A stretch of DNA of 64,000 nt from NCBI GenBank assembly GCA_918262735.1, contig CAKJYJ010000005.1, positions 6,541-70,540 of the forward strand, written 5' to 3'. A model generated the notes under the pieces. The model made no database searches. It saw nothing but the letters and a program-made list of their open reading frames with translations, and was not told where the DNA came from. A program made the translations under genes and the position numbers. The stretch is from Clostridiales bacterium. Lineage in GTDB: Bacteria; Bacillota; Clostridia; Christensenellales; UBA1242. Shown one piece after another: positions 1,242 to 59,211 of the stretch (position 1 is its first letter; each line of letters opens with the position of its first letter).

Positions 1242-4200
1242 TTAATTTATTGGCAAGCCTTGAAGATTAATTGTTTTTACTTCATATTTGCCATCGTAAT
1301 ATGCACCACCAGATATTATGTTTATACTGTTGTTTATTGTGTTTTGAGTAGTATATTTACTAAATGTAAATACTTTAGCTTCTGTTATACTATAATCTGC
1401 ATAATAGAAATATACTTTTTTGCTAATTGTTATAGTCGCTGCACCACTAATTGTGACATTACTAAATGTTGTTTCGTCACTTTTTACAATACTTGTAATT
1501 AATCCAAAGTACAATGAGTTATCAAATATGAAATTATTGTTCATATTTACCGATGCCTCACTCACATATGATGTGTAAACAAATTCGTCTAGCTCGGTTC
1601 CATTTGAATTAATATACTTTTTATGTGATGTTAAATTGATTGATATGTCGCCACTAATAATACTTGAAGAAAGTGCGCTAGTGCCTGGTGCTATATCCAT
1701 ATACCCAACAATAACACCAACATAATTTGAACCGCAAATTATTAAACCTGTGCAATTTTCTTCGTGTTCTTCATCATGGTGCCCAATATTAATTGTTTCT
1801 ATATAGCCGTATGTATAATACCCAACAATACCGCCAACATATTTAACAACATATGGATTATTAATGCTATCGGTAACAAAGCCATTAATTAATTCATTTG
1901 CATAAACACCTGTGAATGACGCACCAATAACATCATAGCCCTTTTCTGATGAAACATTTTTTATTATTCCACCATTCATCAAACCTGCCACACCGCCAAT
2001 TGCAATTGGACATATTGGGTTGGTTTTGAATAAGGTTTTATTCAGTATGTCAGAATTAATTGTTATGTCTTGAATTGTTCCACGATTTTCACCAGTAATA
2101 ATTCCGCCAAAAGCCATTGCTTGAATTTCATTGTTAAATGAATTTAATTCAACATCAATATCGTGTACACATGCAGAGGCGCCAACACCACCAAAAAGTA
2201 ATCCTGCAACAACGCCATATGAGCGAGAGTCTTCTCCAACAGCCACAACAGATATGTCTGCCATGCCTCCAACATATCCAATAATTCCACCACTATAAGA
2301 AACGCTTGTTTTATTAACCGTTGTTTCGTTGTAACTAAGATTTTTTGCAAGTCCACCAACATCCTCTTTGTTATCTATTAAAACTGAGCCATACTGCGTT
2401 GATTTAACAATAACATTGGCAAATACATTTCTTACATCCGTAACTCCGGCAGTTCTACCAAAAACACCACCAAGAATATTGCTACCAGTAACAATTACAT
2501 TTTGTCCTTCAACATTTACGTTATAAACATTTGCATTCGTTAATGTTCCGGCTAATGCCCCAACAAATATTGCATTTGGAAGATTAACATAATATGGCTT
2601 TAGCGTTATATTCTTAAACACACTAACGGTTGTTGAAGTTTGCCCAATACCAGCCAATAAGCCTCCAGAATTAATTGATGAACTGCTATTCACCGAATAA
2701 TTTGAAATATTAAAATTATTACCCTCAAAATGCGCTATAAGCGTTCTGTCGTAGAGTTTTGTGTTATAAACCCTTTCCTGTGTGTAATCTATATCGCAAA
2801 TTAATCTATAGTATTCTAATATACCCATATTGCCTTGATTGCAGTAATCTTCAAATTCAACCGCTGTTGATATTAAATATGGATTATATTGTGAACCATA
2901 TGCAATTTTGGCATCATCTGACGAATACGAATACTTACCATCTTCTATTGTGGTGTTATTATCTAGGTTGAGAGAATATCTAGAATTTGCAATTATGTTA
3001 GGTGAAACAAGTTGTAGTCTACCAGCAACAAAACCTGTTTTTTCAAAACGCTCAGTTTCAAAATCATATATGTCAAACCCTTCGCAAACGGCAGAATATG
3101 TTTGTCCATTCTTCATTTTTTGATCGGTTAATCCCGCATCATTTAATGTTGGAATGTCATTAACATAGAACCAAACAGCATCGGTTAATAGACCATTTTC
3201 TTTATTAATTAAGAAATTTGAGAAGAGTCCATTATTTTTTACCTCACCATGTTTATCAACCAAACTAAAGTCGTATAAGCTTATTGGATTTACACCAGGA
3301 ATTCTAGATGTATAAACATTTGAATTGACATCTTTTTGATAGTTTGTTTCTGATGTGTAATAATTTATAACTCCATCAACTATTGCAAAATAACAATCCT
3401 CAAAACTTGATTTTTCACCCTCTGAAATAACAAATGCATAGTTCAATGTATCATTTACTCTCATTCGTGAAAGTGAATATACTCTACTGATTGAATTGTT
3501 GTTTATTCCAACAAAACCAGCACATTTTGAAGATGAATCTATTGGAATATTTGAATATGAATCGGTAATAATTCCATCATTTTGGTAAACAAAACCTGCT
3601 GTTGCCAAAGACGAATAGATGTTCTTTGAAGCGGTGCTTTCAGAATCTGCATTATAATAGCAATACACCTTATCTGAAATATGCCCTTCTATATAACACA
3701 TAGATATCTTTCCTGAGTTGTTGCAAACAAATCCGCCAGTAACAATATTATCATTTGCCCTACTGGTCTTATTCATAATTTTTGCTTCTTTAACATAACA
3801 GCTTGAAATTTGACCATTATTATTTGCCACAAATCCACCAAGAGAGCCACCATTAAGAGACATGCTTGCCGTTACTCTTGAATTGGTGACATATCCATTA
3901 TTAACTGCTGCAATGGCACCAAAGTATGTGTTTTCCATAGCAGTTACTGAGGTTATAACGCTAACTTCTAATAAGCCACCACCTTTAACACAACAGTTGG
4001 TAATTAAACCATTGTTTGTTGCACACAATATGCCAATATTTGCGTTCATAGTATAATTATTATTAATTGTTAGTGTTGTATGAGTGTTAGACACAACAAT
4101 ATTAATATTTTTAAATACCGAACCAGATTTTATAGTTTCAAACAACGCAAAATTATTTACATTCTCAACATTTGTGCCAATTGTGTTTCCTGTAATGATA

Positions 4201-7200
4201 ATTGAATATCCATTACCATCTAACATACGTGGCGTTGTTTTTATGGTTTCAAATTCATTTCCTTTAATTGTTATATCGCTAACAAGCCTGTAGTATTCAT
4301 CATCTTCAACCAACTTTAATTTTTCATAGCTGTTAATTGGCATTGGGACCTTTTCGCTAGAATTCATATAAACACGAACATTAAATACTGCACTTCCAGT
4401 GTAAATCCTATATATACTATTTGATTCAACATTAGTTAAATCACAAGTTGGAACCCCATTTTTATAAATATAATCATATTTTACTTCAAACTCATATGGT
4501 GCTGAATCAAATATTGCTTTTGGAGTGAATATACCATTTTTGAATAAATAATTAATTGCTCCATCGTCACTTAAACCATCATTAATTTCAATTCGTCTTC
4601 CATTTATATCAAAATAGAATGTTGACAATTCTTTGAATGAATTTAAGAATTGTTGTCGAAGACTATCGCTTTCATATTCCATTGATATTTTATTAGAAAT
4701 AACTTCTTTTATATCTACCGCACTCAAAAGCCTCAGTGAAATATTGTCATCAACAAACAAGTTTTCATTATCTAAAAGAACTTCATAAACACGTAAACTT
4801 ACAACAAAGTTCGCACTTTGTGTTAAGACATTATTCTCTATTTTTCTGCCAAATGAGGTTATTAAAACTTCATAATAAGGATTTTCTCTATAATCAATGT
4901 TAATATTTGAAATATTCAAATAATAAACGCCACCAATGTCGCTTATACTTGCAACATTTGCATCTGAAGAATTGAAGAATACCTCATCTTTATTGAATCC
5001 AACAATATTTGTTACTACGGCATAATTCTTACCCTTTGCAACACTATAAACCGCATTAACTCCCAACGTGTCACTTGGTTCTGGGTCTTTACCGTACAAT
5101 TCAAATTCAACCTTTTTGGTGCTTTTTGCAATAACAGTTATTCCTTTGTAATAGCAGAGTTTTGGTTGACCGTTTTCTGTTTTATAGAAATACATATCAA
5201 TTGGAACATATGTACCCTGATTTATGGATGCAGGTAATGAATATATAATTGCCAAATCCAATGTTCTTTCGGCGGTTGCTGTTTCGGTGTCATAAATTGA
5301 TTCGTTAATTATGTCTGCTCTATATATCCTAAGTGTTAAAACGCCGTCAACCGATGTGTAAACAACTTTATAACTAATATTATAGTATGTTTTATTATCT
5401 TCAATAATCTTTTCAGCCAATGCTAGATATCCACCAGAAACTCCAGAATTCATTGTAATATCAACGTATTCAAATTCGCTAAGTTGTGTGTAAATATATG
5501 TTCTTAAAACATTCATTTCTCCAGAAGATGCAAAGTTGCTTGTGTTTATCATTTCAGATGCAATAAACTGATTTTTGTTCAGATTATTTCTCATGTATAG
5601 GTTTTCTTCGTAGTTATAGTTATTAATTAGAACCGATGTGATTGTTTCTGGAGTGTAATCAATTGTTAAATATTCTCCCTCAAATATTTTTAATGAATGC
5701 ACGAATAGTTTCAAAGCGCAATCCTTAAGCCATCTATAGTTATATGATGTTACAATCATTCTTATTTGATATGTTTCGAAATGTTTAATCCCATCAACAC
5801 TTGAATCTAGTTTAATTAATTTGAAAAGTCTATACCCGTTACTATCTGTTATATAACTTAAATTTGGATCAACAGTATCCTCAATAGAATACATCTCATT
5901 ATTAATATATGGGGTTATTTGAATAATATCATCATTGCTGTAAAGGTTATATGAAATCGACATTTGAATTGTGTCGGTTGGTTCTGCAGCAATATTGTAC
6001 TTATCTATTTCAATATTATCTATTCCCGTCACAGTGCTTATTGCATATGGAACTGAATATGATTCTGCAATATTTGCTGAAAATTTATAGAATCCCAATT
6101 CTTCAACATAAACACCATACAAAACACTGCCCTCTAAAATTAACACAGGGTGAATTTTAATTAATAAGTCCTCATCACTATCTACCAATGATTTTAGGAA
6201 TAATGTTTGTCCTGCAACTCTAACTTCAACAATATCGTCAACTAATATTCCATCTTTATACACATAACCTTCAAATGTTATTTCTGTGTTGTTTTGAAGA
6301 TAAACAGGAGTGTTTTGATAATTATATATATCTGAGTAAGCATTAACGAATAATGTTTTTACCTTATTATTAATAAGTTGTATGTTAGATGTTGTTATAA
6401 CTTTATTTTTATCGGTATATGCTCTAAAATCATCAAAATAAGTTGTTATATAAACCTTTATTGATGCATTATTTTTGTAATTCAAGCTACTATATATTGT
6501 TAAATTAAATGAACCAAGCCCACCAAACTTTAATAAACTGCTATAATTTGTAAAGTTTGCAAGACCTATATTGTCGGTTTCAACAGTAATTTCTTTTGCT
6601 GATATATTGGCAAGTTTTAACAATTCTAAAGTATGCATTGAGTTTTCAATTTTAACTTGGTCGTTTGCATTTTTTGCTTTTTTATAAACCGCAAGAACTA
6701 TGCTAGATATAATGCTTCCACCATTAATTCTTTCTTCCGCCTCTTTTTCGAATTCACCACCATAAACCGTTGTGTAAAAATCCCCGCCGTCATCATAAAG
6801 AATAACAGCAAAATCTCCGTAATAGAAATCAATGTTTAAATTTGGGTCAACACGAAGATTTGAATCATTTCTGAGAGTTCTTGTAACATATGACTCAACT
6901 TTATTGCTTTCATCAAAATTTCTTGTTGCAAAAGCATACAGTTTTTCATATGTGTCGCCATATCTAACAATAAGTGAAATATCAATTCCTTTTCTTGTTC
7001 CGTTGTCGGTTGCCTGAACTTTGTTATACATCACATTTGTTATATCGGCAAGTTCACTCACACTACCAACAAAGCCACAAACATTTCCAGAGCCTCTAAC
7101 GTAAACTCTGCTAATGTTATTTTCAACTTGACCATACGAATAATCTCCCAAGAAACCACCAACAAACGACTCTGCTGATGCTGAAGAGTTAACAACAGTT

Positions 7201-10200
7201 CCAACTGCTTTAATATTAGAGATTAATGCAACATCGCCATCTGTTGATCCGTTTTTACCAACAACGCCACCCAAATAAGTTGCGTTAGATTCAATGCTTG
7301 CATTAACATTAATACCAAACAAACCAACAGAAACTAATGTTGCAGAACTAAATAGGTTTTTAATTCTACCTTCTCCGGCGTTAATTCCGCAAACACCACC
7401 AACATACAAATTTGTGCTTCCAGATTGAATAACAGTAAATTTATTATTCATATCAATTAAAAGTGTTGAATTAATTAACTTATCTGTAATTTGAATATCT
7501 GCCACATTTTTTCCAGCGACCAAACCAATATAAACTGGCACTGCGTTTAAACTTTCACTGTTTATTTCAAGTGGACTTGTCTGTTCACCATAAAGGCTAA
7601 CCGTAACATCACGAATTAAACCATAGTTAACACCACACAAAAGTCCAATATCTGCCTCTAAAGTTTCAATCACCCAGCTTTCTTCACTATCAAACATTCC
7701 AGAGATTGCCAAATTATATATTTTTGCTTCGCTTCCAATTGTTTCAAACATTCCGGAATTTTGTCTGCCAGAATTAACAACCTTAAAGTTAGATATTGAA
7801 CCAATTTGAACGGCCGAACCAAAATCCTCATCTAGTTCACTTAAGAACGTTCCTCTAAGTGTTCCATTAAAGTTCTGTAGTTTAATTTCTTCTCCGCCAC
7901 AATCAATGTTTCTATCAATATAGTAGTGCCTATCTGCAAGCATAGAAACAATACCGCGATAATCTGATATTTTTAATGCAGACTGCTCTGTTTGACCATC
8001 GGCACAGACAAAAGGTAATGCAATGTGATAGTAATAGTTTCCATAATTATCTTTAACATTACTTGATTTCATTTTTGAAACAGGGAAAATCCTAATTATT
8101 CCAGAGCCACCGCTAATATATGTAAATGTCAGATTATTGCCATTCTGTGTGCAAAGCAAGCAATTTGACCCGGTTTTATATTCAATAAATACTCGAATAT
8201 CCTGCATCATTGCATCGGTTGGCATAACATAAAAACTTAGATTAACTTCATTATACTCTTCTGTGTTATCTAAATAAATATCTGTTCTGCCATTAACCAT
8301 ATATAAATTGTCCACATCAATGTAATTATCAATATTAATGGTTATTTCTGAAACATAACTGCTACCCGTTTTGTCTGTTAGCCTTAGGCTAATTGAGAAT
8401 GTATCAATAATCCTAATACCAGTTATATCGCAAACAAACTTAGCTATATACACATCATCTTCGCCGCCGAGTTCAAAATAGCCCAGCGTTCCAACCGGAT
8501 ATTTTCCGTCATCATTCATATGACCAAAATCAGTGGCAGGAATTCTCCAGTTATCTATTGTTATTGCTAAATTTGAACTGCTAAGTTCTCCCATATTGTG
8601 AACCACACTTCCACTTAGAGTTGCATCTAAATATATGAAAGCTTCTGAAAGATTTTGATTCATATATGAAAGGTCATTTTTGTTATAAACAGAAAGATGT
8701 TTAACCTTTCTAGTATTATCTAATATGTCATCAACAAGTTCATCATGACTTGTTGTTATTTGCAATATTTTAATATAATCAATGCATTTAACCGCAATGT
8801 CGTAGTGTTTTGTTGTTAAAACATCAAGACTAAAAGCGCTGTTTGCTTTGTATATTGTTAAAACAACCTCAATGGTAACATCTTCGTCATCTTCTGTGAA
8901 ATTTTTAGCTGTAATAACACCATCGTCCACAACAAAATAATCTTCGTCGCGGCTTTGCACTGTGAGACCAAATGACATTTCGTCTGCATCTCTGTAATTT
9001 AGTATTTTTTCATTGAGTTTTACTTTTGAACCAATACCCTTAAAAACAATGCTATTAACACTGTTATTTAGTTCTGGATCCACTGTGAATTCAGAAACAT
9101 TATTTCCGCTATCTTCAGCAATTTGTAATTGAAAATCTTCTATGGTTATTTCTCTCACAACAACCACAGTTAAGAATGTTCGTAAACCCGTTTGAGTTTC
9201 TAATCTGAACTCAGTTCTTCCAACTTTATTTGCCGTTATTTTTAACATTGGAGTTTGGTAATAAGCTGGTGATGAAAAATCCTGCTCAACATCACAAACA
9301 GAGCCATTTAATGATAATCCAGTTATGTTCAATCTACCAACAGTGCTATTTTCATCAGTCATAAAGCCAGAGAAAAATCTCACAGTTTTCTCCGTTCCTC
9401 TTGACATTGGGATATAAATTGTTGAATCCTCGTATGTTGGATTAATTGTGAATGTTGTGGTTCCCTTATATACCTTAAAATATATATTATTTGAACATAT
9501 AACATTATTAGAATTATCTAGGCAAGATATGGTTAAAACCAAATAGTTTTCGTATGCCATTATTGATTTAACACGCAAAATTTCATTTAAGGAATCTAAA
9601 GTTAACAAATCTATTGCAGTATAATCATAAAGCGATTTATTGCCGTAATAAACCTCAACATATTCAAGGAAGGTTGACCTTTCCATATATGTTGGTTCTT
9701 CACCTGAGGTTATAACTGCACTATAAGTTTCAATTGAATAGTGATAATCTTGACCATTGTATGCACCCTCAACACTTGGGAAAAGTGCAAATCTAAAATT
9801 GAATATTTCTTGACTATTATCGTAAAGTTCAACTGTGTCTATGTTAGATTGCCCATTAATTCTTAATTCTTTTGGCAATATATTAACATAAACCGGTATT
9901 TTTACCACTTCGTAATTTGAAATAAAATCTGCCTGATATATCTTAAATGTTAAGTAGAAAGGAGAATCTGGTTGCGTTATTGAATTTGCCTGAACAATGA
10001 AAGAAAATTCTTCTTCTCTTCCAACGATTGGAGCACCATTTGCAATCTCCCCAGTTAATCCTTCATCGGCATAGGCATCAATCTTATAAAAAGCACGTTC
10101 TGATTCAAACTCATAACCAACACTAACTAGTTTTTGGAAATTTGTGTTGTCGTTTAATGTTAATTCAATTTTACTAATACCCTCTTCTTCAAAAGGATAC

Positions 10201-10946: not shown

Positions 10947-10982
10947 AGTTCTCTCCCGCCTTATCTTTTATTGTTATGGTTA

Positions 10983-11005
10983 AAACCCTTGTTTTTCAAG
11001 GGCTT
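10983..11005 (-). terminator. Weak hairpin (possible attenuating terminator) between the two giant genes
   Basis: The minus-strand RNA AAGCCCUUG-AAAAA-CAAGGGUUU forms a 9-bp stem that includes one G.U pair. Only a short U-tract follows. It lies in the 81-nt spacer between the giant gene 2 stop (11028) and the giant gene 1 start (10946). Confidence 0.3.
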
Positions 11006-11027
11006 TAACTCAAAGTTTGTATTTTGT

Positions 11028-20000: not shown

Positions 20001-23000
20001 ATATGAATCTGAAGCCCCTGCATAAACGTCACCAGTTGCATAAACCTCATTTATTTGAATTTGGTAATATTCATCTGAACTCTCATCAGTAATATATGTT
20101 GGGTTAACTAAACCAATCACACCACCAGCGTATTTTACTGTGCTGTTTCTTACGTTTATTTTTGAATAGCCAACGTCAATTATTCCCCTGTGCATTACAC
20201 CAACTAAACCACCAATAGTGTTTGGTCTATAAAGAGTTTCTTCACCGTCAACTTCAAATAGTTTAAGCTCTCCTCTATCATAATCTAAATTAGATTTATA
20301 ATATGTTTGAATATTTTGTTCAATATCTTTCTGCCAAGTTTCTTCGTGTTCTGCTTTAATCTGATATAAGTATCCACAGTTAAATCCAACAACACCACCT
20401 GCAAAACAATTATATGCAATTAATTTTGCCCCACGAGAAACTGTGAATGATAAATCCTTGGCAACAACAAATGTGCCAATGTAGCCAGCAACACCACCAA
20501 CGGTCATTGCTGTTATTGTTTCAATACCTTTAACGCTTAAACCTTGAACGTTTGCTTCACGAAGGTCAGTGTTTGCAATAACTTTTCTGCTAACAAATTG
20601 TTTTTGTGTGAACAAATCCAGAATACCAAATGCACCACCAGCTATAGATAGTGTTGCAAGTCCGGTTCCTTCCATGTTTGGTGTGTTGTTTGTTAGTTGT
20701 AGAGCATTAAATGATTCGCTTTGGTTGTATGTTGCTGTTACAGAAACATTTTCAACAGTTACACCGGCTATGTAGCAATCGCCAGCAACTCTACCGACAA
20801 CGCCACCAACAATGTTGGCACCAACGACTGTTGGTTTGTCCATGGCGTTCATTGCATACACCCTTACATTAACAAGTATAGAATCAGTTAATGTTCCGGC
20901 AATCGTTCCAACGTTAACTGTATGGTCGGCATTAACACCACCAGTATCTAAACCTATATTTAAGTTCTTAATTCCAGCACCATTTTCAATTGTTTTGAAC
21001 ATACCATAGTTTTGAGAACTTGTTTTACTTGGATTAGATATTGCCAAATGACTAATTGTTAAACCATTTCCATCCAACAAACCAGGTCTGTCTGATAAAT
21101 ATCTGTATTGACCGGTTAAAGAAACATCTGTTGAAGTTAAACTATACTTATAGTCAGTTGTTTCAACCTCTTGGTCATCTATAATAAGTTCATTTAGGTT
21201 AATATTATTAACTAATCTATAAGAACCAAATGCTTTTCCGTTTTCAATATTGTCTGCAAATACAGTTTCAGTTCCACCAAACACATCATTAAATTCTTTT
21301 GCATCTCTAATGATGATTGGGTTGTTAACCGTTCCATATTCGTAGTCATTATCGTACACAAACACATATGCAAGTGAACTCGTTTTGCTTACACTTCCAT
21401 TATTATCTGCTTTATATCTTATTGAATGTGTTATATCATCAGCACTAACTAATCTTGGTCCTTTGGTTGAAATTTTCCAAGTTGCTTGTAAATCATTTGA
21501 TGAACTTCCAAAACTAAATCCATAGAAATTAAAGCTTGAGTTAACATTTTTAACAGGCTCAACTTCTGTGTTGTAAACAGGATCTAGTAGTGTTAAATCC
21601 ATAACGTCAGTTGAATAATAATAACAAGATTTTATTAATCCACGGTTATTATATTCCATTAAATCATTCACACCAATAAAACTTAATTGTGATATATTAT
21701 TCCCCGCAATAGATGAGAATGAATAACTACGCAAAACTTCTCCATTCAATTCATTTTGATACACAAAACCTGCACCCAAACGTCCAACCTGATTGCTTGT
21801 GGTTTTTATCATAATGTTACTATAACAGTCTGCTATTGTGTTGGTGTTGTCGTAAACAAACCCTGCAAGTATGCCATTTCCTTCTATTCCACCATTCATG
21901 GCTTGAATGTCCACATCATTTCCAACACCTTCAACATAGCACATTGAAATAGCACCATCGTTTGTGTTAACAAACCCTGTTGTTACCATTGTTTGGTTGC
22001 GGTCATACGTGTTAATCACATTTATATTTTTTGCAAAACTGCTTGAAATAACCGCTCCGGTATTGTTTTTTATAACAAAACCAGAAACTGTTCCACCAGC
22101 ACGGATTGTAAATGTCTTTGCTTTTGTTTCGTTTGTTCTAAGTGTTGGTTTAACAAAATTGTCACTAGATGTTGGGTACACAAATGATGAAACAAGTTTG
22201 CTATCTCCACCAACTCTACTATTCGTTATGCTACCATTATTGGTTATAACCATACCTGCAGCATTAACCGTTACGTTTGTGTTTAAAGTTGTTACCTTTA
22301 ATCCATACGTGGTGAATGTTGGAGATCTTTCTCCTGAAGCAAATGCCATTACTTCTGTGTTATAAACAACGCCTGAGTTTGTTATTGCAAGACCTGCTAT
22401 GTCAACTCTTATTATATCTTCGCCTAAATTTATTTCTGGTAAGTAATAGTAATTCACTGTAACGTTTTTAATTGTTGTTCCTGAAGAAATTGTGTTAAAG
22501 AGTGCAAAGGTCGCAGATGTGGTTGTTGGTTCTTTGAAACTAACAATGTTAATTGTGTAGTTATTACCATCAAAAGATTTTATTTTGCTTGTGTTTGGCA
22601 TTGATTCATTAACATCGTAGTCATATAAATAAATATTGTTGCTTAAAATGTAATGATTTGCCTTTTCGCTGTTATTCATTGTTTTGAATGATTCAGCATC
22701 AGAAATTTCAATTGGCATATCCTCTGTGGTATATAGTGAGTTTGAAATTGTGAAATAGTATTCGTAAACATATTGTGCGCCATCTGGCATTGTTCTATAT
22801 AGCCTTAATAACATTGGCACTTGACCAACCCTATCTCCACCCATAACATACAATTTTTCGCCAGAAATTCCAAATGTTACTATATTATTATATTGTGGGT
22901 CTTCAACGGCAACAAATTCTTTTCCGTTAATACCATTTATAACTCTTCCAATTGAATATGCTTGATTACCGTTTAGATAATAAAGATATGAAACAAGGTT

Positions 23001-26000
23001 ATATGCTGCACCACCATTATCGTTTCCAAGTTCAAACACTATGTTTTCTGATGCTCCGCCAGAAGTTGAAAGTTTATAATAGTAGTTCGCGTTAAACTCT
23101 GCTATTGCAGATAATACGTCTTCATTTTCTCCATGATTAAAGTTTGTGTAAAGTTCTAACATCTTTGGTTTAATGCTGTTAACTTCCAATTTACCCTCAT
23201 TAACATCTTTAATCTGTATTGAATTATCAACAACTCCAAATGGTGTTATGTAAATGAAAATTGGAGCAGATTTTGCCGTTATATGTTCACCTTTCTCGAT
23301 TTTTTCCGATTCAACATATAAATTTAATGGTATTTTTGATTGGTTAAACGCAAAACCATTTTCACCATCAAAAGGAATGGTGAATGTTAACTTATATTGC
23401 CTGTATCCAACATTTGAACCTTCTATTTCTTCAAATTCAACCAAAATACTGTCTAACACAGTTCCATTGTTGTCTGTTAGGTAAACTTTTTTAATAGTTT
23501 GATCATAAGAAATATTTGCTCTGGCAGTTAATGTTTCTCCCATATAAGCATATATTGATGTTTGACCATCAATTGAAATCTGAGGAACAGCCGGAGCTTT
23601 AACATACAGTGTTATGTTTGATTCTTTTTCAAGTTTCACACCTTTATAGTATGCACTAATGTTTATGTTGATTATTGCATCTTGATTTAATGTGTTTGTT
23701 GGGAAAATAATGATATAGTACGTGCCGATATCTTGTACCAAATCACTATTTTCTGATAAGTTGTTGTTAATTCTAATTCCGTTAACATCATCTAAAACTT
23801 GATATCTTGCATTGTTATCAAATGTGTAAACATCTCCTTCTTTACGTTGAATTCTGTATGCAAGTTGAGCAAGAGTGTTTGATGTGGCAACAATGTCAAT
23901 ATAATCAAGAGTTGCATAATTTGGGTATAAGTCAACAACCAACAACGCTCTTCCTGTTGGTTTAATTACTGATGTTGGGTTAGTCCAAGAAACAACAGAA
24001 TAATCTGTTCCACCACTGCTATACCCTGATACTTGTTCATACATTGCAGAATGAACGCTTGTTAAAGTTTGAGGAAGAATCGTTAGCTGCATTTGACCAA
24101 AAGTACTATAAACAATTTCTCCATCCTCTGAGCAAGCATACACCTTTACTCTGTATGTTTTGTCAACATAATTTAATGAATATCTATATTCACTCTTAAG
24201 TCCAATAACAATTTCAAAGTTATAAACGTTTGAATTTGCCGTTAACTGTCTTCCACCAACACTTATATCAAAAGCGTTTGTTACATCGTAATCATATTGA
24301 TTTTCAATTCTTATATTTTCTTTAATAACCTTGTCAGTTGGCATATCGGTTGTGATTGAAGCATCAAAAACAAATGTATCTTTTGGTTCAATGCTTCCCT
24401 CTGAAGCAGAAACCCCAACATTTGTTGTTCCTCTACTCAGTACCAACTTAACAAAATAATACTCTCTTGTGCCACTTCCTAATTCAGATTCAACTTTTAG
24501 GAAGTAATTATTGATTATGTCGTTATAAACCTCACTATATGCCGAGTATATTTTTGCAGATAGTATCTTTGTTGTTTCTTCTCTGTTCCATGTTGCATGG
24601 ATGGTGTGATTACCAAGAGTTGTTCCTGTTACATAATTTGTTGCATCAATAATGTTTTGCCAGTCATTCAAGTCTTCTTCATCATTGAACATAAAGAATG
24701 CAATATTAAAGTCATTTTGTTTTAATTCTATTCCATCAACAATAACCCTACCAGCTGATGAAATAACTGAACTTCCACCAACAAGGATTTTTATTTCGCT
24801 ACCCTTTTCAAGTTTCTCTATGCCTTCAACAAATCTAAATTCGTCAATGAAATATAATGAAACCATATGAAGCGTTATACTTTGAGTGTAATCGTATTTT
24901 GAATAAACAATCAAATCAAATTCGCCAATGCTATTAATATGAATCGTGTTACCAACAACAGAAACAATACGAGAATTAATACCAAGTTGATCTAATGCTA
25001 AAACCTTTATTGAGCTTCCTAGGTTTGTGTAAACTAAATCTTCAACCGTAATTGTGTTGTGTGTTGATAACCCATTTTGTTTTGTTGAATCTTTAGCCTC
25101 ATAATAGAATACAACACCATATCTTGAAGAAGAATCGCCAATTGAATGCCTTTCAACAGTGTTCACATATCCAGTGCCATCAAGTTGATTACCAACATCT
25201 GAATATGATATCAGGTCAACATATTCTTGTGCCTCTAGGTTTATATCTTCATGAGAATTGTCAATGAACATTATACCATTGATTGTGTTTAGTGTTCCAC
25301 CATCGTTAACTTGAATAGTTCTTCCAATTGCTTCCATACAGTCATTAAATCTAGCAACAATTAAAGAACAATCTTCAATAGTTCCGTTATTTATTCCATA
25401 TAAACCGGTTTTAATAACATTACCTTCACCGATTATGTTTTCATTTTTTGATGCAATTGTTCCAAGGAAAGAACAATTCCTTAGCGTTCCGTTGTTTGTT
25501 CCAACAACACCACCAACACTTCCGTTACCTTCAAAACGAACTAAGCTTGGAATGTAATTTCCGTTCTTTATGTATGATGTGATTTCAACATTTTCAATCA
25601 AACCGCTGTTTGTGTTCGCAATCATGCCTTGCGCATTTGATGTTCCGTAAACAACAAGGTCTTTAATAATTGCTCTTGAGCCAATAGCATCAAATAATGA
25701 ACAATCATCAAGACATAAAGTTGCTGGAATATCATGAGCCTCACTAACACCATAAAGACCCCCATTGAATACTTCACCAACAAATAATGTTGAATTGAGC
25801 ACCAATGTTTCATTGCTCACAATTTTATAGTGTTTTGAAAGATTACCAATCTGTAGAAGATTGCTAATTCTAAATGCCGTGTTATAACTATTACCATCGG
25901 CAATAGTGATTGGTATTATTATTCTCTTAACAGAAACCGTGCTATCCGTGTATTGTGGCGTAATAACAATTTTACCCGTGCCACCAACGGTTCCTGGAAT

Positions 26001-28898
26001 GTATACCCTTCCGTTATTCTCAGAAACATCAATTAATGATGGGGTGTAGCCTGTGTCTGGAACAAATGTATAAACTAGGTTTTTGTTAAAAGCATCAATA
26101 GGCGTAACTTTTGTGAAAATGTTATAAACATTTGTATCTGTTACACTCAATGTTGAAACGTCTATATATATTTCTTCATATGTTTTTGACTCGTTATCCT
26201 CTGATAATAACCTCAATGAAGTAACTTCAACATTTTCAACAGCTTTTGTTCTTGTTACTTTGATAAAAATCTCATATGTCTTTATTGAGTCATTGTTTGA
26301 ATATGTGTCCAATGAAATAAAACTTGTTTCAGAAACAATATCGTTAAAATCAACGACAAATAGTACCAAGCGCAAGAAATCTTTATCATAGTTGAAATCA
26401 CTTGGAACTTCAACAACGGTTATTGTCAATTCATTTGTTTGTATGTTTAATGTTGCGTTAAACTTTGCTTTATCATCAAATTCATAGATAATATATTTTG
26501 TTGTTTCTGTGTTTTCAATAACTTCTTCAAGGCGACCATTGTTGATATATACCCTATTGTATGTTGCAACATTACCACCCGATGCAACACCGTTAACTAA
26601 AACCATTGTTGTTGCGTTACTATAGTCTGCAGCAACAAGTTGATTTTGTGCCCTAAGTTCAACAACCTTTTCGCTAGATTCAATATCCTTAATTGGACGA
26701 TATATCTCAACTAAAACATATTTTGTGATTGCTTGTGCCTGAATTATTTCGCCCCTTCTATTTACTTCATTTCCATAAATATCAATCTTTACATACACTT
26801 TACCAACTCTCGTTGTTGTGATTATGTTGGCTTCTTTAATGTCTTGGGCATTAACAACCAAACTTAAATTTTTAAAGCTTGTGTCTTCAAAACCCTCTAA
26901 TGCAAAATTTTTATATGATTCTGAGTATGCAGATGTATATTCTTCATCTCCCAAAACGGCATCAACAAACGAATATGTTATATTTCTAATATTTGCACCA
27001 TCGTCATAAATGTATGATAAAGGAATGGCATACCCAAATTTAATTGATACCTTTTTTAATGATTCTTCATTATCGTACTCAACCAAACCAACACCGCTTA
27101 CATCAGAAGATGAGCCACTTATTGCAACCTTAACATCATTTATTATTTGAATAGTTTCAACCGATAGTGTTGCTTCAAAACCATTTCTAGTTCTAAATGT
27201 GTACCTTCTAACACCAACTTCCTTTGGCAAAACCTCAATGTTGAAATAATTTGGAACAACATCAGCAGATACTGTTATATATTCATCATCGTCAAATACC
27301 AAATCGCCAACGCTTGCTCCTGGGGCATATAGTCTAAGTGATGTTGCACCACTACTTTCACCACCCAGTTTAACTGCAACTTGTTTTTCTTTAACTGCTG
27401 GAGATTCAACTGCGTCTTCAGTAAAACCAAAATCAGAAGCACCAAAGCTTACTGTGAAGAATAATGTTTTTGGCTCAACATTAAACACAGATTCACTCTC
27501 AACAACCAATCTTGGGGTTTCGCTTGTTCTGTTTGTTGACGCACAAATATAAAGCGTATCTCCCGCCGTGAATAAATCATCTTCAAAAAGTTTTGAATAA
27601 ACATTTTGTCCGTTTAGAATGTAGACATCAATGTTCAGCATGCTCTTAATCTTGAATACCCTATCTGACGCATTTGCTGGAACTGGGTTGAAAATAAACA
27701 TTGAACCATACAATGAATTGCCGTAGTTTTCATAAATTAAATATGAATTATCAGGCAACAATTCCGCATCTGTTGTAACTTGAATAGCACTGATTGGAAC
27801 AACAATGTTAATTGGTAAATAATCTTTTAGAACTGGTTGATTAGACTGATTTACACACTTAACAAAATTAGCAGTTAAAACCGAATTGTTACTGTGGTCG
27901 GTATAATAGAATTTAAAATACAAAAGACCAACAGCTCTTGTTGGTTTAACATTATACGATTCAAATACAAAGGTGTATGTTTTGCTATCTGTTACGCTCT
28001 GAGAAATAATTCTGTCATATCTCAAATAGCTCATTATGTTCTCTTGTTCATTTTTGCTTGAATCAACATCAACTTCAACGCCAAGAGAATTTGGTATCTT
28101 TACTTCAATTTGAAAATCTTCTAAAACATTTTGATCAATTTGTAAATAGTATCCATTTTCGTCAATATTTTGCCCATTCCCACCATTGTAATTAACTTTC
28201 ATTTCTATTGCATCGGCAACATATCTTACATTTGGAATTACCTTCACATTGAAATCTGTGAATATTGAATTCCCACCAACGGTGTGATTTGATTGTGCTC
28301 TAACAACAATATCTTCATCAAAATTATTAAAAGTGTTTGCCAAAACCAACCTGCCATTAACAATAGCAACGGTATCAACAAAACTATCTCCGTTTAAAAT
28401 TTGGTAAGTTACCCCGTCTCCAGTTGAGCCACCAGGTTCAAATGTTATATTGTCAGCAAAACTCATTGATGTTACTTCACCATTAAATGCAATATATAAA
28501 TCGTCTGGAGCAATTATGTTTGTTATAGGAACCACAACCGTAACACTAAATGATGCAGACACATTGGCACCCGCCAAAACTGTTACAATAACTTCGTCAA
28601 CCTGTAGCTCTGTTTTTGGTGTTATGTACAAGTCAAAAGAACCATCTGATAATTTGGCAGATGAGGTTACTTTTATCTTTGAGGTGTCGTATCTAAGGCT
28701 AAGTGAATTAACATTGATGTCAACCAATTTAACGTTGACCGTTTCAGTATTGTCCTCCGTTTCACCAATATATATTACGACTTGGTCCTTGCTAAGCACC
28801 AGCCTACCAGCTGAACCATTTTGCCCACCACAGGCAGCAATAAACAGCCCACAAACAAGCGCGAATGCACATAGCAATAATTTAGATATTTTTTTCAT
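11028..28898 (-). CDS. Giant surface lipoprotein 2 (5,956 aa): Ig-like region, about 7 GLUG-type beta-helix modules, internal hydrophobic hairpin, Tyr/Asn-rich C-terminal region
   Basis: The ORF is 17.9 kb without a stop. The signal peptide MKKISKLLLCAFALVCGLFIAAC has lipobox IAAC with Cys23. A GGAGG RBS lies at 28903-28907. GLUG-like coils include VGGVVGTNNGTLRNCSFLG, AAGMVITNNGSITNSRVGG, TTGFVNTNDGAISMCYVEG, AGFVYDNTNTIADCYSN, VGGVVGRVAGDCYIAGV, AGFANTNDGVVYTCS, AGFIYTNNGYVFGSYSN, VGGIVGEADSGTVSNCYTV and VGGIVGANLNTGAS. Module entries lie near nt 25873, 22720, 21338, 19480, 17720, 16450 and 14484. Confidence 0.9.
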   Translation of the reverse strand: MKKISKLLLCAFALVCGLFIAACGGQNGSAGRLVLSKDQVVIYIGETEDNTETVNVKLVDINVNSLSLRYDTSKIKVTSSAKLSDGSFDLYITPKTELQVDEVIVTVLAGANVSASFSVTVVVPITNIIAPDDLYIAFNGEVTSMSFADNITFEPGGSTGDGVTYQILNGDSFVDTVAIVNGRLVLANTFNNFDEDIVVRAQSNHTVGGNSIFTDFNVKVIPNVRYVADAIEMKVNYNGGNGQNIDENGYYLQIDQNVLEDFQIEVKIPNSLGVEVDVDSSKNEQENIMSYLRYDRIISQSVTDSKTYTFVFESYNVKPTRAVGLLYFKFYYTDHSNNSVLTANFVKCVNQSNQPVLKDYLPINIVVPISAIQVTTDAELLPDNSYLIYENYGNSLYGSMFIFNPVPANASDRVFKIKSMLNIDVYILNGQNVYSKLFEDDLFTAGDTLYICASTNRTSETPRLVVESESVFNVEPKTLFFTVSFGASDFGFTEDAVESPAVKEKQVAVKLGGESSGATSLRLYAPGASVGDLVFDDDEYITVSADVVPNYFNIEVLPKEVGVRRYTFRTRNGFEATLSVETIQIINDVKVAISGSSSDVSGVGLVEYDNEESLKKVSIKFGYAIPLSYIYDDGANIRNITYSFVDAVLGDEEYTSAYSESYKNFALEGFEDTSFKNLSLVVNAQDIKEANIITTTRVGKVYVKIDIYGNEVNRRGEIIQAQAITKYVLVEIYRPIKDIESSEKVVELRAQNQLVAADYSNATTMVLVNGVASGGNVATYNRVYINNGRLEEVIENTETTKYIIYEFDDKAKFNATLNIQTNELTITVVEVPSDFNYDKDFLRLVLFVVDFNDIVSETSFISLDTYSNNDSIKTYEIFIKVTRTKAVENVEVTSLRLLSEDNESKTYEEIYIDVSTLSVTDTNVYNIFTKVTPIDAFNKNLVYTFVPDTGYTPSLIDVSENNGRVYIPGTVGGTGKIVITPQYTDSTVSVKRIIIPITIADGNSYNTAFRISNLLQIGNLSKHYKIVSNETLVLNSTLFVGEVFNGGLYGVSEAHDIPATLCLDDCSLFDAIGSRAIIKDLVVYGTSNAQGMIANTNSGLIENVEITSYIKNGNYIPSLVRFEGNGSVGGVVGTNNGTLRNCSFLGTIASKNENIIGEGNVIKTGLYGINNGTIEDCSLIVARFNDCMEAIGRTIQVNDGGTLNTINGIMFIDNSHEDINLEAQEYVDLISYSDVGNQLDGTGYVNTVERHSIGDSSSRYGVVFYYEAKDSTKQNGLSTHNTITVEDLVYTNLGSSIKVLALDQLGINSRIVSVVGNTIHINSIGEFDLIVYSKYDYTQSITLHMVSLYFIDEFRFVEGIEKLEKGSEIKILVGGSSVISSAGRVIVDGIELKQNDFNIAFFMFNDEEDLNDWQNIIDATNYVTGTTLGNHTIHATWNREETTKILSAKIYSAYSEVYNDIINNYFLKVESELGSGTREYYFVKLVLSRGTTNVGVSASEGSIEPKDTFVFDASITTDMPTDKVIKENIRIENQYDYDVTNAFDISVGGRQLTANSNVYNFEIVIGLKSEYRYSLNYVDKTYRVKVYACSEDGEIVYSTFGQMQLTILPQTLTSVHSAMYEQVSGYSSGGTDYSVVSWTNPTSVIKPTGRALLVVDLYPNYATLDYIDIVATSNTLAQLAYRIQRKEGDVYTFDNNARYQVLDDVNGIRINNNLSENSDLVQDIGTYYIIIFPTNTLNQDAIININISAYYKGVKLEKESNITLYVKAPAVPQISIDGQTSIYAYMGETLTARANISYDQTIKKVYLTDNNGTVLDSILVEFEEIEGSNVGYRQYKLTFTIPFDGENGFAFNQSKIPLNLYVESEKIEKGEHITAKSAPIFIYITPFGVVDNSIQIKDVNEGKLEVNSIKPKMLELYTNFNHGENEDVLSAIAEFNANYYYKLSTSGGASENIVFELGNDNGGAAYNLVSYLYYLNGNQAYSIGRVINGINGKEFVAVEDPQYNNIVTFGISGEKLYVMGGDRVGQVPMLLRLYRTMPDGAQYVYEYYFTISNSLYTTEDMPIEISDAESFKTMNNSEKANHYILSNNIYLYDYDVNESMPNTSKIKSFDGNNYTINIVSFKEPTTTSATFALFNTISSGTTIKNVTVNYYYLPEINLGEDIIRVDIAGLAITNSGVVYNTEVMAFASGERSPTFTTYGLKVTTLNTNVTVNAAGMVITNNGSITNSRVGGDSKLVSSFVYPTSSDNFVKPTLRTNETKAKTFTIRAGGTVSGFVIKNNTGAVISSSFAKNINVINTYDRNQTMVTTGFVNTNDGAISMCYVEGVGNDVDIQAMNGGIEGNGILAGFVYDNTNTIADCYSNIMIKTTSNQVGRLGAGFVYQNELNGEVLRSYSFSSIAGNNISQLSFIGVNDLMEYNNRGLIKSCYYYSTDVMDLTLLDPVYNTEVEPVKNVNSSFNFYGFSFGSSSNDLQATWKISTKGPRLVSADDITHSIRYKADNNGSVSKTSSLAYVFVYDNDYEYGTVNNPIIIRDAKEFNDVFGGTETVFADNIENGKAFGSYRLVNNINLNELIIDDQEVETTDYKYSLTSTDVSLTGQYRYLSDRPGLLDGNGLTISHLAISNPSKTSSQNYGMFKTIENGAGIKNLNIGLDTGGVNADHTVNVGTIAGTLTDSILVNVRVYAMNAMDKPTVVGANIVGGVVGRVAGDCYIAGVTVENVSVTATYNQSESFNALQLTNNTPNMEGTGLATLSIAGGAFGILDLFTQKQFVSRKVIANTDLREANVQGLSVKGIETITAMTVGGVAGYIGTFVVAKDLSFTVSRGAKLIAYNCFAGGVVGFNCGYLYQIKAEHEETWQKDIEQNIQTYYKSNLDYDRGELKLFEVDGEETLYRPNTIGGLVGVMHRGIIDVGYSKINVRNSTVKYAGGVIGLVNPTYITDESSDEYYQIQINEVYATGDVYAGASDSYMGGVIGLNKFSVLDIKKVASLNVWSKETISVSDSGKHIAQIAFDNSVHIEESGNAYSNGSNINYSSVSALYNGWKPGSGEGIYDVDGTRITVVFNDSTNKTIPVFVKTNNDDINTNLSVDAVTIPSYYNYAGLSSDGGAQVDTAFKQTGWYSASNWIKKTDSLYPAIRYVESVNVFTISTVDDFDLIRRYGGNPDSQFVIVNNIDCSRIKISYPVLRGTLMGLNDSITLTKLSVPLVKTLNGAEICGINLENFSAPIANEAINGTFIHDLIYRNCDFSSVSSSVAGTYDIAGVVFQADNTIFQTIEFQNCYLKIGPIADKNVKNAGLLFACGKTGGTVDIRNISINSSCYIGNNDTSTSDIKPVNNEANIGLVFGESKASATNINNASVKGKVIVSLPQSETPSQESSIGLIGGHVENITTISNASVSSGVVYVKCDNGNQVLNVGGFVGKASSSVIVVYDSFAGSSTGCDVTVIGVYNAIHVGGMVGRANSFEYSSGIELVFGRKASNDYNTIYVDSPAGATSAFVGGACGYTEKMSSTDNGIDTPAGGALIYNGNIIINQAQESDVGAKMYIGGIVGQIKPATPGENMSAKKLIFGGTISFEYKTAVTNQTTYYVGGLFGAITNANYSINVDSAYVFGDILLENTTSSLSAIKYDLITTTTSYFGGVVGQVEVNTTLNLTNSIGLATLYSKHNNAHLFDAIAIKENNTSEINCGPDGAVKTFYASNLNLCVSETAAVNSAFGSLNTRLGGFSQIFEEGTKLNPYVYDISMNINSHSSEGDGYSAEVENGCQELRGTISDGRKTYFYLSEDITAGQSFANRISLFNIGFFADGQSITTNFVPFEKIDGTSFVSGVKSRIYADETELDKNVSLAGFANTNDGVVYTCSAEETLVDYEDLDATNFNPVKTQFYGYLKTDASIVAGFIYTNNGYVFGSYSNMNIVSTYSKNNFGSISGFIFKNSGTVEYSYAMGYAEIGSLTEVTRNIDLFIIDNGGNAKVINCYTTFATAYDSNGVATISHNANTGCLYEKDACETILSHNTTALCGEYTDKYYKCDANYNSNYPTLSDGPFAELSYTKRLTMLNKTQKTVIESGKKTNWDYYYVSETGNAGEYGVINTITALSKVANDGKYVISRSLNFGYVVDNVNRNSYGALGYTIKNGSEDTLAYKLCQTSETTLINTTPEEINGDGKTVYNVTLAEGSCLIGTIKTDAILKNLTFDNVNVIGTGVPIKINNGTIDNVNLTGEVKYTGGTSANQYVSALIGQNAGLIINSKVSLTSLTGAGAANNYTFGTFVGKNMGTVGQKNGNKWERVDATMSSVIIVETKDNLQVTVGGIVGYNTTDGMVSGCGIIDKADINVIADVVCVGGIVGEADSGTVSNCYTVESSTIAGGSEDLGSVSVDSVELNIPASTSSHVGGIVGACSGSLKISDCSNGAGVTAKARWIFEFDTSGTRKNNRYKYSPRLESIYVLELGTSNAYAGGIISNYLTESNINSENSTRLKNTGVITGGFKAWKPVMILTTKSNSFLHGLQSTGWGASAIGMAAIGIYAAVTMVGAKSALLIGAANAYNPVGWAMIAVAGCLALYGGIQAYKESQEAKTAHLNYCPVLGNSNKYYGLFGSDANKDTVQKVFKADDDNVGYINNSTDFNMNAFMDNPVSTALKHIEFNSVFTDENLNFVDDYSKMYFEDASGVGSPGKVLQAIYYDGIAPGIESNNLTIESHTRNYKEENGKFKVTKDVTINTEALKTGERLKVLTLNTSDENNSKLTFFYGDEYGNSIKYGTANNATLANEFDVNNTKPLLNNYTGNSSAWSNGWSDGELDTVNPDIFVPINENAENVGTKEHPYLFLLTDPLTWRELAYTINNTQYGGLEQYNKYDGWFDGEGDINNHSTIIISAKNNTVIEVAGNVLDRYNGTITLTNFASAFGGMKLNITNNTNYGLIRKTKDLVVNSFNYKGNVELSYHKKLTPELDDSNKYNSNFGLLVGEVVAGGKLTVNERKQNGYVQIDSLLISNEVVNRFVNISGLVGCANGQVKIKNEGITIGEFRQEGYLISAGTGGSRVNCSFGGVIGSIVGSGNADLQSVDFTGIDIKLQTSINCVGGIVGANLNTGASRSLKITDSHVNLEEFMAVSFETDVYVGGVIGLNKGTTTITQPIVQFFSESLTISADVADGTQSAFAGGIVGANLASANSLEYSGAKIYGSNGYASGYILAGYNKVSNTNVYVLPSKAYAGKYIGHGNADEGLGMSSIYVIVRSVAINNSAAINNSATIGAEKIDLDNSYKFYDGNTDGTKIYSVCVKDIYASGESEYGFEPPNDLRNGNSSGYIKGQIQSYGFTMGNANIGGYIYTATPPTNQRTLDTYGYTYTNNKISAHKEEQITIDGNTYTNTFDSYNQYSVSNINSYYSYENDTNGYATIYEADLTFVSNYGNSWYDADYSVNNNEVSVSNIREEKYEGSIETKYRITVTRLNPIADNGNGRFLVKIIFLSLSKSGDAFNDFELELNPNDIVYSKVFDKQESFNEEIIDMNFGMNGGLIFSETKDIPNSNHNGAVVKTSRSVVIKPVSMKLFYDNSSKTIAIKEYLSLNEETNGIWKQYVTGNALSVHVLSVNADYERTIAKVTLEDMESTTFNRVSVGSSENWVNIYAGLTKKLDIVDGSNTIEINTIGDDGFMYKGYYVSKSLYNGKYFSEQFQQESSQDITDIGTDVYYKSIGAKTYVIVSNYNLRTVTSTDHGSTYNYDVKDCVYEYNDTIKKYGLKATLSYQLETPADKANMYNVIGNRYDSFVPVVPISSKMSCLNVVYEKNGHNYDLGENGSFAIPGVKFVIPTKLTLNYIYGDSSLTCANSSDRVMYDIRITYDNTNHTFATTLSENNNGDVNIKYSAVKFSDVKYIETPLGVTYNQYENNLINNCGVIQGKYVLKKDGYTDENYYWGDDELITVAYLIENNTINEYNQVVPGGGDNELYYVYINGSSIEWVGTDSIAVRFYTFK
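13195..13230 (-). repeat. Perfect 2 x 18-bp in-frame tandem duplication inside giant gene 2
   Basis: The plus strand reads GCAGAGTTATTAATTGCA twice (13195-13212 and 13213-13230). It encodes ...V-AINNSA-AINNSA-T... Confidence 0.9.
15225..15395 (-). other. Internal two-helix hydrophobic hairpin (aa 4502-4558) of giant lipoprotein 2
   Basis: The translation is WGASAIGMAAIGIYAAVTMVGAKSALLIGAANAYNPVGWAMIAVAGCLALYGGIQAY. It forms two small-residue-rich hydrophobic helices joined by NAYNP. Helix 2 contains the lipobox-like VAGC (Cys4548, nt 15257-15255). Polar K/E-rich sequence flanks it (KAWKPVMILTTKSN... / ...KESQEAKTAH). Confidence 0.6.
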
Positions 28899-28974: not shown

Positions 28975-29003
28975 ATTATATAAATAATAGGGTTCCAAGT
29001 CAA
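28975..29003 (-). promoter_or_regulatory. Near-consensus sigma-A promoter of giant gene 2 (TTGACT-N17-TATAAT)
   Basis: On the minus strand, the -35 TTGACT is at 29003..28998, the spacer is 17 nt, and the -10 TATAAT is at 28980..28975. It lies about 77 nt upstream of the ATG. About 110 nt of almost pure A/T (29004-29116) lies upstream of it. Confidence 0.55.
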
Positions 29004-29151: not shown

Positions 29152-29204
29152 TATGAATTTATTAACTAAAAAATTAAAAAATAAATTTTCGATAATTTTT
29201 ATTA

Positions 29205-58287: not shown

Positions 58288-59211
<924 letters not shown>

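Follow-up and report, generated by a model that had tools for sequence, protein, structure and literature searches.

Giant surface proteins are already known in bacteria as a class, and the closest published system-level analogue of the gene pair described here is, judged by its organization, an array of 4–5 giants of 3,000–9,000 amino acids (aa) in Lactobacillus (Apilactobacillus) kunkeei (PMC4494060). The pair, genes A and B, lies in a 64,000-nt stretch of DNA from a Clostridiales bacterium (assembly GCA_918262735.1, contig CAKJYJ010000005.1, positions 6,541 to 70,540), hereafter the window, in whose numbering coordinates are given unless another locus is named. The two genes encode predicted lipoproteins of 5,956 and 3,234 aa. 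Like A and B, the L. kunkeei genes are tandem paralogous giants with N-terminal signal peptides and no recognisable domains, and they are lineage-restricted. Both systems belong to small-genome Firmicutes of the animal gut and have positional orthologues that are closer to each other than paralogues within one genome; for L. kunkeei, attachment was proposed as the function. Unlike A and B, the L. kunkeei giants are described with a signal peptide rather than a lipobox and with a conserved 60-aa C-terminus, and they resemble EbhA-type helical adhesins (PMC4494060) rather than Ig-like arrays combined with beta-helices.

A build from multiple Ig-like domains is shared with the S-layer proteins Sap, EA1, SbsB and SbsC; unlike these, A and B have neither SLH nor a wall-binding domain, are 4–8 times larger, and contain beta-helices. 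The classical giant adhesins (S. aureus Ebh, Salmonella SiiE, Pseudomonas LapA, and the Bap family) are very large beta-rich or Ig-like surface proteins that reach past the envelope and are adhesive. Proteins of this type consist of many near-identical tandem repeats, vary in length, and are anchored by LPXTG, a C-terminal transmembrane (TM) segment, or type I secretion system retention. In contrast, A and B are non-repetitive, with position-specific colinear domains and a predicted N-terminal lipid anchor, and the length of B is conserved. The Aureispira grappling hook GhpA (9FLY, 9FLP, 9FLW) resembles A and B in comprising thousands of residues with Ig-like arrays (the numbering of its deposited fragments goes past residue 5,000) and is among our top Foldseek matches. 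Unlike A and B, it comes from a diderm, and the match reflects a generic Ig-array fold at 8–10% identity that does not imply homology. To our knowledge, GhpA has no lipobox-based anchoring. A preprint describes GhpA as physically capturing other cells (bioRxiv 10.1101/2024.01.29.577165).

The beta-helices of A and B resemble the GLUG (PF07581) domains of streptococcal and Gemella M26 IgA1 proteases (6XJB, 7UVL, 7UVK) and of Bacteroides ovatus BACOVA_03286 (3N6Z), right-handed parallel beta-helices with coils of the GG(I/V)(V/A)G-N-G-I type, whose function is essentially undescribed in the literature, where the term occurs in only four papers. Distant sequence relatives carry PF07581 and PF05342. 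Unlike the M26 proteases, A and B lack the M26 catalytic domain, HExxH and LPXTG, and unlike the M26 GLUG domains, they contain several beta-helix units each, within chains of 3,200–6,000 aa. Surveys of giant bacterial proteins report other Clostridia giants (with RCC1, Listeria-Bacteroides repeats, or dockerins), none of them resembling A or B. We found no publication describing this family in the literature on GLUG, giant lipoproteins, and giant Clostridia genes. A and B belong to an undescribed, clade-restricted family with unusual anchoring and construction.

A conserved pair of giant lipoprotein genes

Gene A (11028..28898, minus strand), the upstream member, and gene B (1242..10946, minus strand), the downstream member, are two adjacent same-strand open reading frames (ORFs) exactly as an earlier, sequence-only reading of the window had described them; that both run on the minus strand is a detail it did not give. 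They are 81 nt apart and together span 27,657 nt, the 43% of the window given by that reading, amid the housekeeping neighbours that it also reported (UvrB, Obg, PriA, LepA, Ffh, HflX, TsaD, and a release factor). GC content across both genes is 30–36%, the same as in the flanks. By our own arithmetic, stops would be expected at ~7.5% of codons at such GC, with a mean open run of ~13 codons, and 5,956 stop-free codons would arise by chance with a probability of ~1e-200. The DNA of A and B contains no collapsible tandem repeats (TRF finds one trivial 41-nt repeat), and self-BLAST of each protein returned the diagonal only, with no detectable internal repeats.

A and B are real genes, and assembly error does not explain them. 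Other samples yielded five independent assemblies (L031–L035), reached via the M23 peptidase gene that neighbours A; these are ~99% identical to the window, share its order of M23 peptidase, acyl carrier protein (ACP) and A, and keep up to 778 codons of the 5' end of A intact, with 7 amino-acid substitutions and 0 stops. In a Clostridia metagenome-assembled genome (MAG; L004), the upstream neighbours recur (flippase-like, Fe-ADH-like, M23 peptidase, ACP), and after them come a 5,208-aa gene and then one of 3,218 aa; these giants are the A and B orthologues at ~25% identity. Since the syntenic neighbours in L004 are themselves only 25–40% identical to those of the window, this distance points to deep lineage divergence rather than to exceptionally fast giants. 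A 10-N scaffold gap in L004 (9970–9979) splits its A orthologue into a 189-aa ORF with the lipobox and the 5,208-aa body; the deposited 5,208-aa 'hypothetical protein' thus seems to be without a signal peptide, and its annotation conceals the lipoprotein nature of the gene product.

Scanning GTDB species representatives yielded 26 loci. At ~18 of these, a lipobox-bearing, full-length B orthologue (3,137–3,377 aa) is directly preceded by a giant ORF that exceeds the 10-kb flank, is colinear with A (orthologues L004–L025), and has an extrapolated length of ~5,200–5,900 aa. The sequence-only reading had raised the point of whether the pair always occurs in tandem. The large-then-small tandem recurs in ~18 other MAG species, but a second group of loci (P0004, P0005, L014, L016, L021, L022, L027) holds a single giant only, a lipoprotein of 3,500–3,700 aa with the same layout, which suggests either a single-gene ancestor or secondary loss.

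Purifying selection acts over the entire length of the genes. The ratio of nonsynonymous to synonymous substitution rates (dN/dS; Nei-Gojobori) is 0.09–0.17 in four close B pairs, uniform along the gene, and 0.06–0.12 in the region of beta-helix units U2 and U3 of B (described below). In the C-terminal halves of the A orthologues it is 0.23 and 0.49 (two A pairs), and the distal half of A evolves 2–3 times faster. The contiguity of both reading frames is thus backed by independent assemblies and by colinear orthologues, and none of the three outcomes that the sequence-only reading had named as refuting it was observed. A chimeric assembly or a decaying pseudogene is effectively excluded by intact colinear orthologues in >20 species, the agreeing assemblies, dN/dS well <1, and the lack of collapsed repeats.

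In both proteins, MKK at the start leads into a hydrophobic core, and the lipobox that follows has its cysteine at residue 23 (A, FIAAC; B, ILAGC); a Shine-Dalgarno sequence precedes each gene. The N-terminal sequences are MKKISKLLLCAFALVCGLFIAAC and MKKFFSVVTFSLIFILGAILAGC. As lipoprotein criteria we used a K/R n-region, a hydrophobic core, and [LVI][ASTVI][GAS]C with the Cys at 15–35 (PROSITE PS51257/PS00013), together with the stricter Gram-positive G+LPP pattern. The signal peptide and lipobox of A (28830..28898, minus strand) and of B (10878..10946, minus strand) pass both, in agreement with the lipoprotein signal peptides that had been claimed; across the family, the PROSITE rule is passed by all 45 N-termini and G+LPP by 18 of the 45. 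Cys23 is invariant across 19 B orthologues, and the A orthologue of L004 likewise has a lipobox. Surface exposure of A and B is likewise predicted. The claimed absence of a sortase signal, SLH repeat, wall-binding repeat, and catalytic motif agrees with both motif scans and Pfam: LPxT[GAN] and the HExxH zinc motif occur nowhere in A or B, no SLH (PF00395), cell-wall-binding, or catalytic Pfam family matches A or B at full length or in tiles, and SLH is missing from 15 orthologues.

The family is small. A search of 5.8 billion clusters with B gave four relatives, and the first 3,000 residues of A, used as a query, returned one. An exhaustive HMMER search with the non-GLUG middle region of B detected this region in 29 out of 1.84 billion representatives; its position is the same in every full-length protein, and the full-length B-type proteins recovered in this way measure 3,154–3,374 aa. 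The length of B thus stays within ~7% (3,150–3,375 aa) across sequences that are only ~25% identical. As the sequence-only reading had supposed, no assigned function and no characterised full-length homologue emerged from sequence, PDB, or literature searches. One weakly related ORF stands apart from these: at L029 (2–16636), in a Clostridia MAG of 26% GC, an ORF runs to the locus edge without closing, is at least 5,544 aa long, and shares 23% identity with B over ~250 aa of the U3 region; it may belong to a further family of giants made of GLUG-type beta-helices.

The carriers are, without exception, uncultured Clostridia or "Clostridiales" MAGs. Two of them are tied to the GTDB family UBA1242 (Christensenellales): L008, "Christensenella sp. 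UBA1242", apparently the namesake genome of the family, and L011, Ca. Caccopulliclostridium, which was assigned to UBA1242 (PMC8035907). UBA1242 genomes measure 671–1,611 kbp, the vast majority <1 Mbp, and lack amino-acid, nucleotide, and lipid biosynthesis as well as standard transporters; their owners have been interpreted as partner-dependent obligate symbionts or parasites, in a study that makes no mention of these giants (PMC12306168). Orthologue carriers and synteny would place the organism of the window in or near UBA1242. Elsewhere in the window, neither LepA (54496–56310, minus strand) nor UvrB (38338–40287, minus strand) has a relative at 90% identity in a set of ~15 billion proteins; sequenced close relatives are lacking, although LepA is found on four contigs.

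Domain architecture and paralogy of B and A

Searches of Pfam and NCBIfam with full-length halves of A and B gave no real matches. In Pfam searches with tiles, a single GLUG copy at B ~1179–1204 (tile 810–1618) reached 24.3 bits, above the PF07581 gathering score of 20.5; GLUG scores in A tiles (17.6, 16.2, and 12.8 bits) all fall under it, and only 2 of 15 B orthologues have a GLUG match. Ig-like families of the Big_2/Big_3 type are absent from A and B tiles even at E<=5 and from the 15 orthologues. PDB sequence-profile searches with the B family, the beta-helix module, and the A C-terminal region returned nothing beyond a marginal Ig-like match to 4UID. Support for the Ig-like and GLUG beta-helix building blocks proposed by the sequence-only reading thus comes chiefly from structure and custom profiles instead of Pfam; custom hidden Markov models (HMMs) of the three B units were used after simple GLUG and cap regular expressions proved too insensitive.

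B opens with a predicted array of ~8–9 Ig-like beta-sandwich domains (residues 24–975; 8022..10877, minus strand), a count estimated from the strand pattern. Its AlphaFold model is an all-beta string of domains (mean predicted local distance difference test score, pLDDT, 82.6), for which Foldseek lists 408 PDB matches at E<=1e-3, among them titin, gp210, GhpA, protocadherins and cadherins, Sap, EA1, SbsB, and SbsC. The array is followed by beta-helix unit U1 of GLUG type (residues 976–1359; 6870..8021, minus strand), assigned from the Pfam GLUG match and the unit profiles, and by a family-specific middle region (residues 1360–2194; 4365..6869, minus strand), the one matched by the 29 representatives. 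We dropped the idea of calling this middle region Ig-like, as hhalign to the N-terminal array gave no similarity; it has no PDB or Pfam match either. The tandem beta-helix units U2 and U3 (residues 2195–3104; 1635..4364, minus strand) are the most conserved part of B. A model of residues 2190–3100 (pLDDT 76, predicted template modelling score 0.82) consists of two consecutive right-handed beta-helices and matches 3N6Z with a Foldseek probability of 1.00 and 6XJB and 7UVL with 0.96–0.99; PL6 lyases, GH55, and phage tailspikes are weaker matches. Distant sequence relatives of the U2-U3 module mostly carry PF07581, and some carry SLH. B ends in a tail (residues 3105–3234; 1245..1634, minus strand) that is poorly conserved among orthologues.

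The same plan recurs in A. Its N-terminal region (residues 24–994; 25917..28829, minus strand) is colinear with the Ig-like array of B, from which its own Ig-like fold is predicted; the sub-profile pairs are B26–224 with A26–224, B501–609 with A523–587, and B880–974 with A908–982. A counterpart of U1 (B 976–1359) at residues 995–1233 (25200..25916, minus strand) is recognised by a custom HMM and by a sub-threshold GLUG match, and the middle region (residues 1234–2056; 22731..25199, minus strand) is partly colinear with that of B (B1365–1500 with A1191–1344; B1785–1955 with A1633–1781). The counterparts of U2 and U3 (residues 2057–2976; 19971..22730, minus strand) are detected by hmmsearch at E=5e-51 and 1e-30 and align to B by BLAST at 25% identity; by custom HMM, U2 spans B 2195–2597 and A 2057–2474, and U3 spans B 2681–3104 and A 2520–2976. 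Because the sub-profiles of the non-helix regions occur in the same order in both proteins, their sequences identify A and B as ancient colinear paralogues, and the paralogy claimed for them stands on BLAST, unit HMMs, and colinear sub-profiles alike.

Relative to B, A carries a C-terminal extension of ~3,000 aa, in which further beta-helix-like regions lie beyond U3; B has none there. Residues 3142–4480 (15459..19475, minus strand) contain more GLUG-type beta-helix matches to the custom HMM (~3142–3650, 3820–3975, and 4140–4480) that are kept in A orthologues. They are followed by a TM-like pair of hydrophobic helices with an NPVGW turn (residues 4502–4557; 15228..15395, minus strand; Kyte-Doolittle 1.64–1.73), a feature absent from the earlier reading. 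No other apolar stretch in A is as long, not even the signal-peptide core. Equivalent and often stronger hydrophobic segments are present at the same relative place in roughly half of the A orthologues, reaching Kyte-Doolittle 2.46 and in one case a run of 64 residues without a polar residue, and several of these segments carry a P-V-x-G-W motif. Across these proteins, the segments sit just after the last conserved beta-helix unit, 530–2,100 aa before the C-terminus, and B has no such pair. If the pair forms a helical hairpin, both flanks would stay outside and A would be pinned to the membrane twice. The distal region of A (residues 4558–5956; 11031..15227, minus strand) comprises, by custom HMM and orthologue alignment, a beta-helix-like stretch at ~4890–5255 and a tail of 700 aa, for which no similarity to the other A orthologues could be detected; no PDB match was found for the A C-terminal region.

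Genomic neighbourhood and expression signals

Directly upstream of A lie an ACP gene (76 aa; 29205–29435, minus strand) and an M23 peptidase gene (29616–30182, minus strand). The order M23-ACP-A is common to the window, L004 (7199–8142), and L031–L035, and further upstream both the window and L004 have flippase-like and Fe-ADH_2 (glycerol-1-phosphate dehydrogenase-like) genes, so that this block may constitute a conserved envelope- or lipid-related neighbourhood. A hairpin resembling an intrinsic terminator (29116..29152, minus strand; identified at consensus level) closes the ACP gene, and A would therefore begin its own transcription unit, for which a putative sigma-70-like promoter is available ~77 nt before the ATG of A (TTGACT-17-TATAAT, 11 of 12 consensus matches; 28975..29003, minus strand). 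The intergenic spacer between A and B folds into a hairpin with a 13-bp stem (10977..11012, minus strand; −18.3 kcal/mol, z −4.3) and no U tract, which probably serves as an attenuator or stabiliser, with A and B co-transcribed.

Further lipid and envelope genes of the window encode a patatin-like phospholipase (49449–50333, minus strand), the flippase-like protein (LPG_synthase_TM; 33710–35146, minus strand), the Fe-ADH_2 protein (30730–31980, minus strand), and a polysaccharide deacetylase (32007–33104, plus strand). Such lipid- and envelope-remodelling genes are of note given that UBA1242 is reported to be without lipid biosynthesis. Downstream of B, the gene varies by lineage: it encodes a 936-aa protein (L024 19788–22598; L025 19786–22596) or a 496-aa protein (L002 10096–11586), neither with a Pfam match, rpoB/rpoC follow at many loci, and the window has a 173-aa ORF without a Pfam match. 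These differing genes indicate that the downstream context of the pair is not conserved. Single-giant MAGs have, immediately before the giant, a gene for a protein of ~895 aa (L014 3742–6423; L016 3998–6691; L027 652–3345) with an N-terminal membrane segment and a P-loop ATPase domain of the VirB4/TraG type (PF19044, DUF87, AAA_10). A link to type IV secretion was considered and rejected: in L016 the ATPase is preceded by HflX and PRC-barrel genes, and there is no type IV secretion cluster.

A possible attachment fibril and its alternatives

We propose that A and B are lipid-anchored fibrils that attach to a partner microbe or to host-derived glycans, a reading to which we give an even chance. 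Attachment is favoured because the carrier lineage has been interpreted as depending on other cells, and supporting this idea, the fold matches include studied attachment or capture proteins with Ig-like arrays (GhpA, cadherins). In this model, both proteins would be exported by Sec, lipid-modified, and cleaved at Cys23, which would leave them tethered by the N-terminus on the outside of the cytoplasmic membrane. Each would extend from there as a long non-repetitive rod, with ~8–9 Ig-like domains first and GLUG-type right-handed beta-helix units thereafter; B has three such regions and A has at least six or seven (beta-helix-like ones), with family-specific regions in between. With ~4 nm allotted to each Ig-like domain and 0.48 nm to each beta-helix coil, we roughly estimate that a fully extended B would reach ~100 nm and A 150–200 nm, far past the Gram-positive wall. 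The conserved U2-U3 module could act as a binding platform, with specificity residing in the fast-evolving distal half of A. Such an arrangement would have arisen by duplication of a ~3,300-aa lipoprotein in the ancient past, after which A would have gained its distal extension.

Several points weigh against this proposal. The uniformly low dN/dS and tight length of B suit a structural element as well as they do an adhesin, or better. Lipidation at Cys23 is predicted by pattern matching, and neither lgt nor lspA turned up among the scanned ORFs of the window, in which no dedicated search for them was made. AlphaFold folds cover 1,863 of the 9,190 residues (B 24–975 and B 2190–3100), the remainder being assigned by homology or given no fold call. 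The TM-like pair in A is not accounted for by a simple rod. Just two carriers are tied to UBA1242 by name or by a paper, and the window has a gene for a class II fructose-bisphosphate aldolase (58297–59211, plus strand; E=1e-92), an enzyme reported to be missing from UBA1242 (PMC12306168). Either the organism lies outside typical UBA1242, or the gene encodes a related enzyme such as one of the tagatose-bisphosphate type.

The two proteins might instead build a lipid-anchored layer, akin to an S-layer or a scaffold, which would cover and shield the cell or determine how its envelope is spaced, with a role in architecture and not in binding. We consider such a coat unlikely, though it deserves serious attention. 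It would be in keeping with the S-layer matches of the N-terminal array (Sap, EA1, SbsB, SbsC, and a weak profile match to 4UID), with a B length held within ~7% despite ~25% identity, with low and uniform dN/dS, with non-repetitive, position-specific domains, and with the syntenic envelope-related neighbourhood of M23 peptidase, ACP, flippase-like, and glycerol-1-phosphate dehydrogenase-like genes. However, known S-layer proteins are far smaller and form lattices via dedicated assembly domains, and neither A and B nor 15 orthologues showed a lattice domain of the SLH or any other type. The 2–3 times faster evolution of the distal half of A and its unconserved tail look more like an interaction surface, and Ig-like arrays are so generic that matches to S-layer proteins are unspecific. 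A role as surface-anchored glycan-active enzymes is improbable in our judgement. The beta-helix units would then be lyases, hydrolases, or depolymerases that cut host mucin, dietary glycans, or a partner's envelope and feed a minimal metabolism, as might be read from Foldseek matches to PL6 alginate lyases, GH55, and the HK620, P22, and CBA120 tailspikes, from a tandem double-beta-helix arrangement like that of PL6 and GH55, and from the link drawn by West-Roberts et al. between giant proteins and cell-wall degradation in predatory bacteria. Yet these enzyme matches are weak (one at E <=1e-3 only, low probabilities, TM-scores <0.2), and the high-probability matches are to non-catalytic GLUG domains (3N6Z and the IgA1 proteases). 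Window proteins and 15 orthologues contain no CAZy-type Pfam family, and UBA1242 is reported to be without standard sugar transporters (PMC12306168).

The position of the TM-like pair directly after the last conserved beta-helix unit, together with the poorly conserved and faster-evolving C-terminal region, would also suit a device for contact-dependent delivery, in which A is a filament of the CdiA or polymorphic-toxin type, the hydrophobic pair enters the target membrane, and the variable C-terminus is the effector. This is very unlikely: the variable region, at 530–2,100 aa, is far above the size of a toxin domain, searches of A/B tiles and the A C-terminal region gave no toxin or pretoxin family, the gene after A is B and not a small immunity gene, and the hydrophobic pair is missing from about half of the A orthologues. 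We see almost no chance that the proteins are relatives of M26-type IgA1 proteases or that the locus is an artefact, a chimera or a decaying pseudogene. A weak Peptidase_M26_N match at A 3151–3220 (E=0.033) and the fold likeness to IgA1 protease speak for the former, but neither A nor B has HExxH or a Peptidase_M26_C domain, and we rejected an M26 protease identity on the absence of HExxH. For the latter, the exact B sequence of the window was seen on a single contig; the orthologue, assembly, selection, and repeat evidence given above stands against it.

The attachment reading can be extended to a more specific and quite doubtful one. A and B might form the core cell-cell contact apparatus of genome-reduced, partner-dependent UBA1242-type Clostridia, a lipid-anchored heteromeric fibre whose distal A recognises the partner and whose hydrophobic pair, in some lineages, inserts into the partner membrane to form a bridge for metabolites. 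If true, Firmicutes would have an equivalent of the attachment systems that have been postulated for Patescibacteria.

By our own arithmetic, A and B would together take up ~2–4% of the genome if it is of typical UBA1242 size (671–1,611 kbp). The pair is conserved under purifying selection in related MAG species yet invisible to Pfam, and it illustrates another route to a giant surface protein, one that combines a predicted N-terminal lipid anchor with non-repetitive, position-specific domains and a conserved length. A and B are the first concrete candidates for an attachment or envelope structure of this widespread, uncultured and genome-reduced gut lineage.

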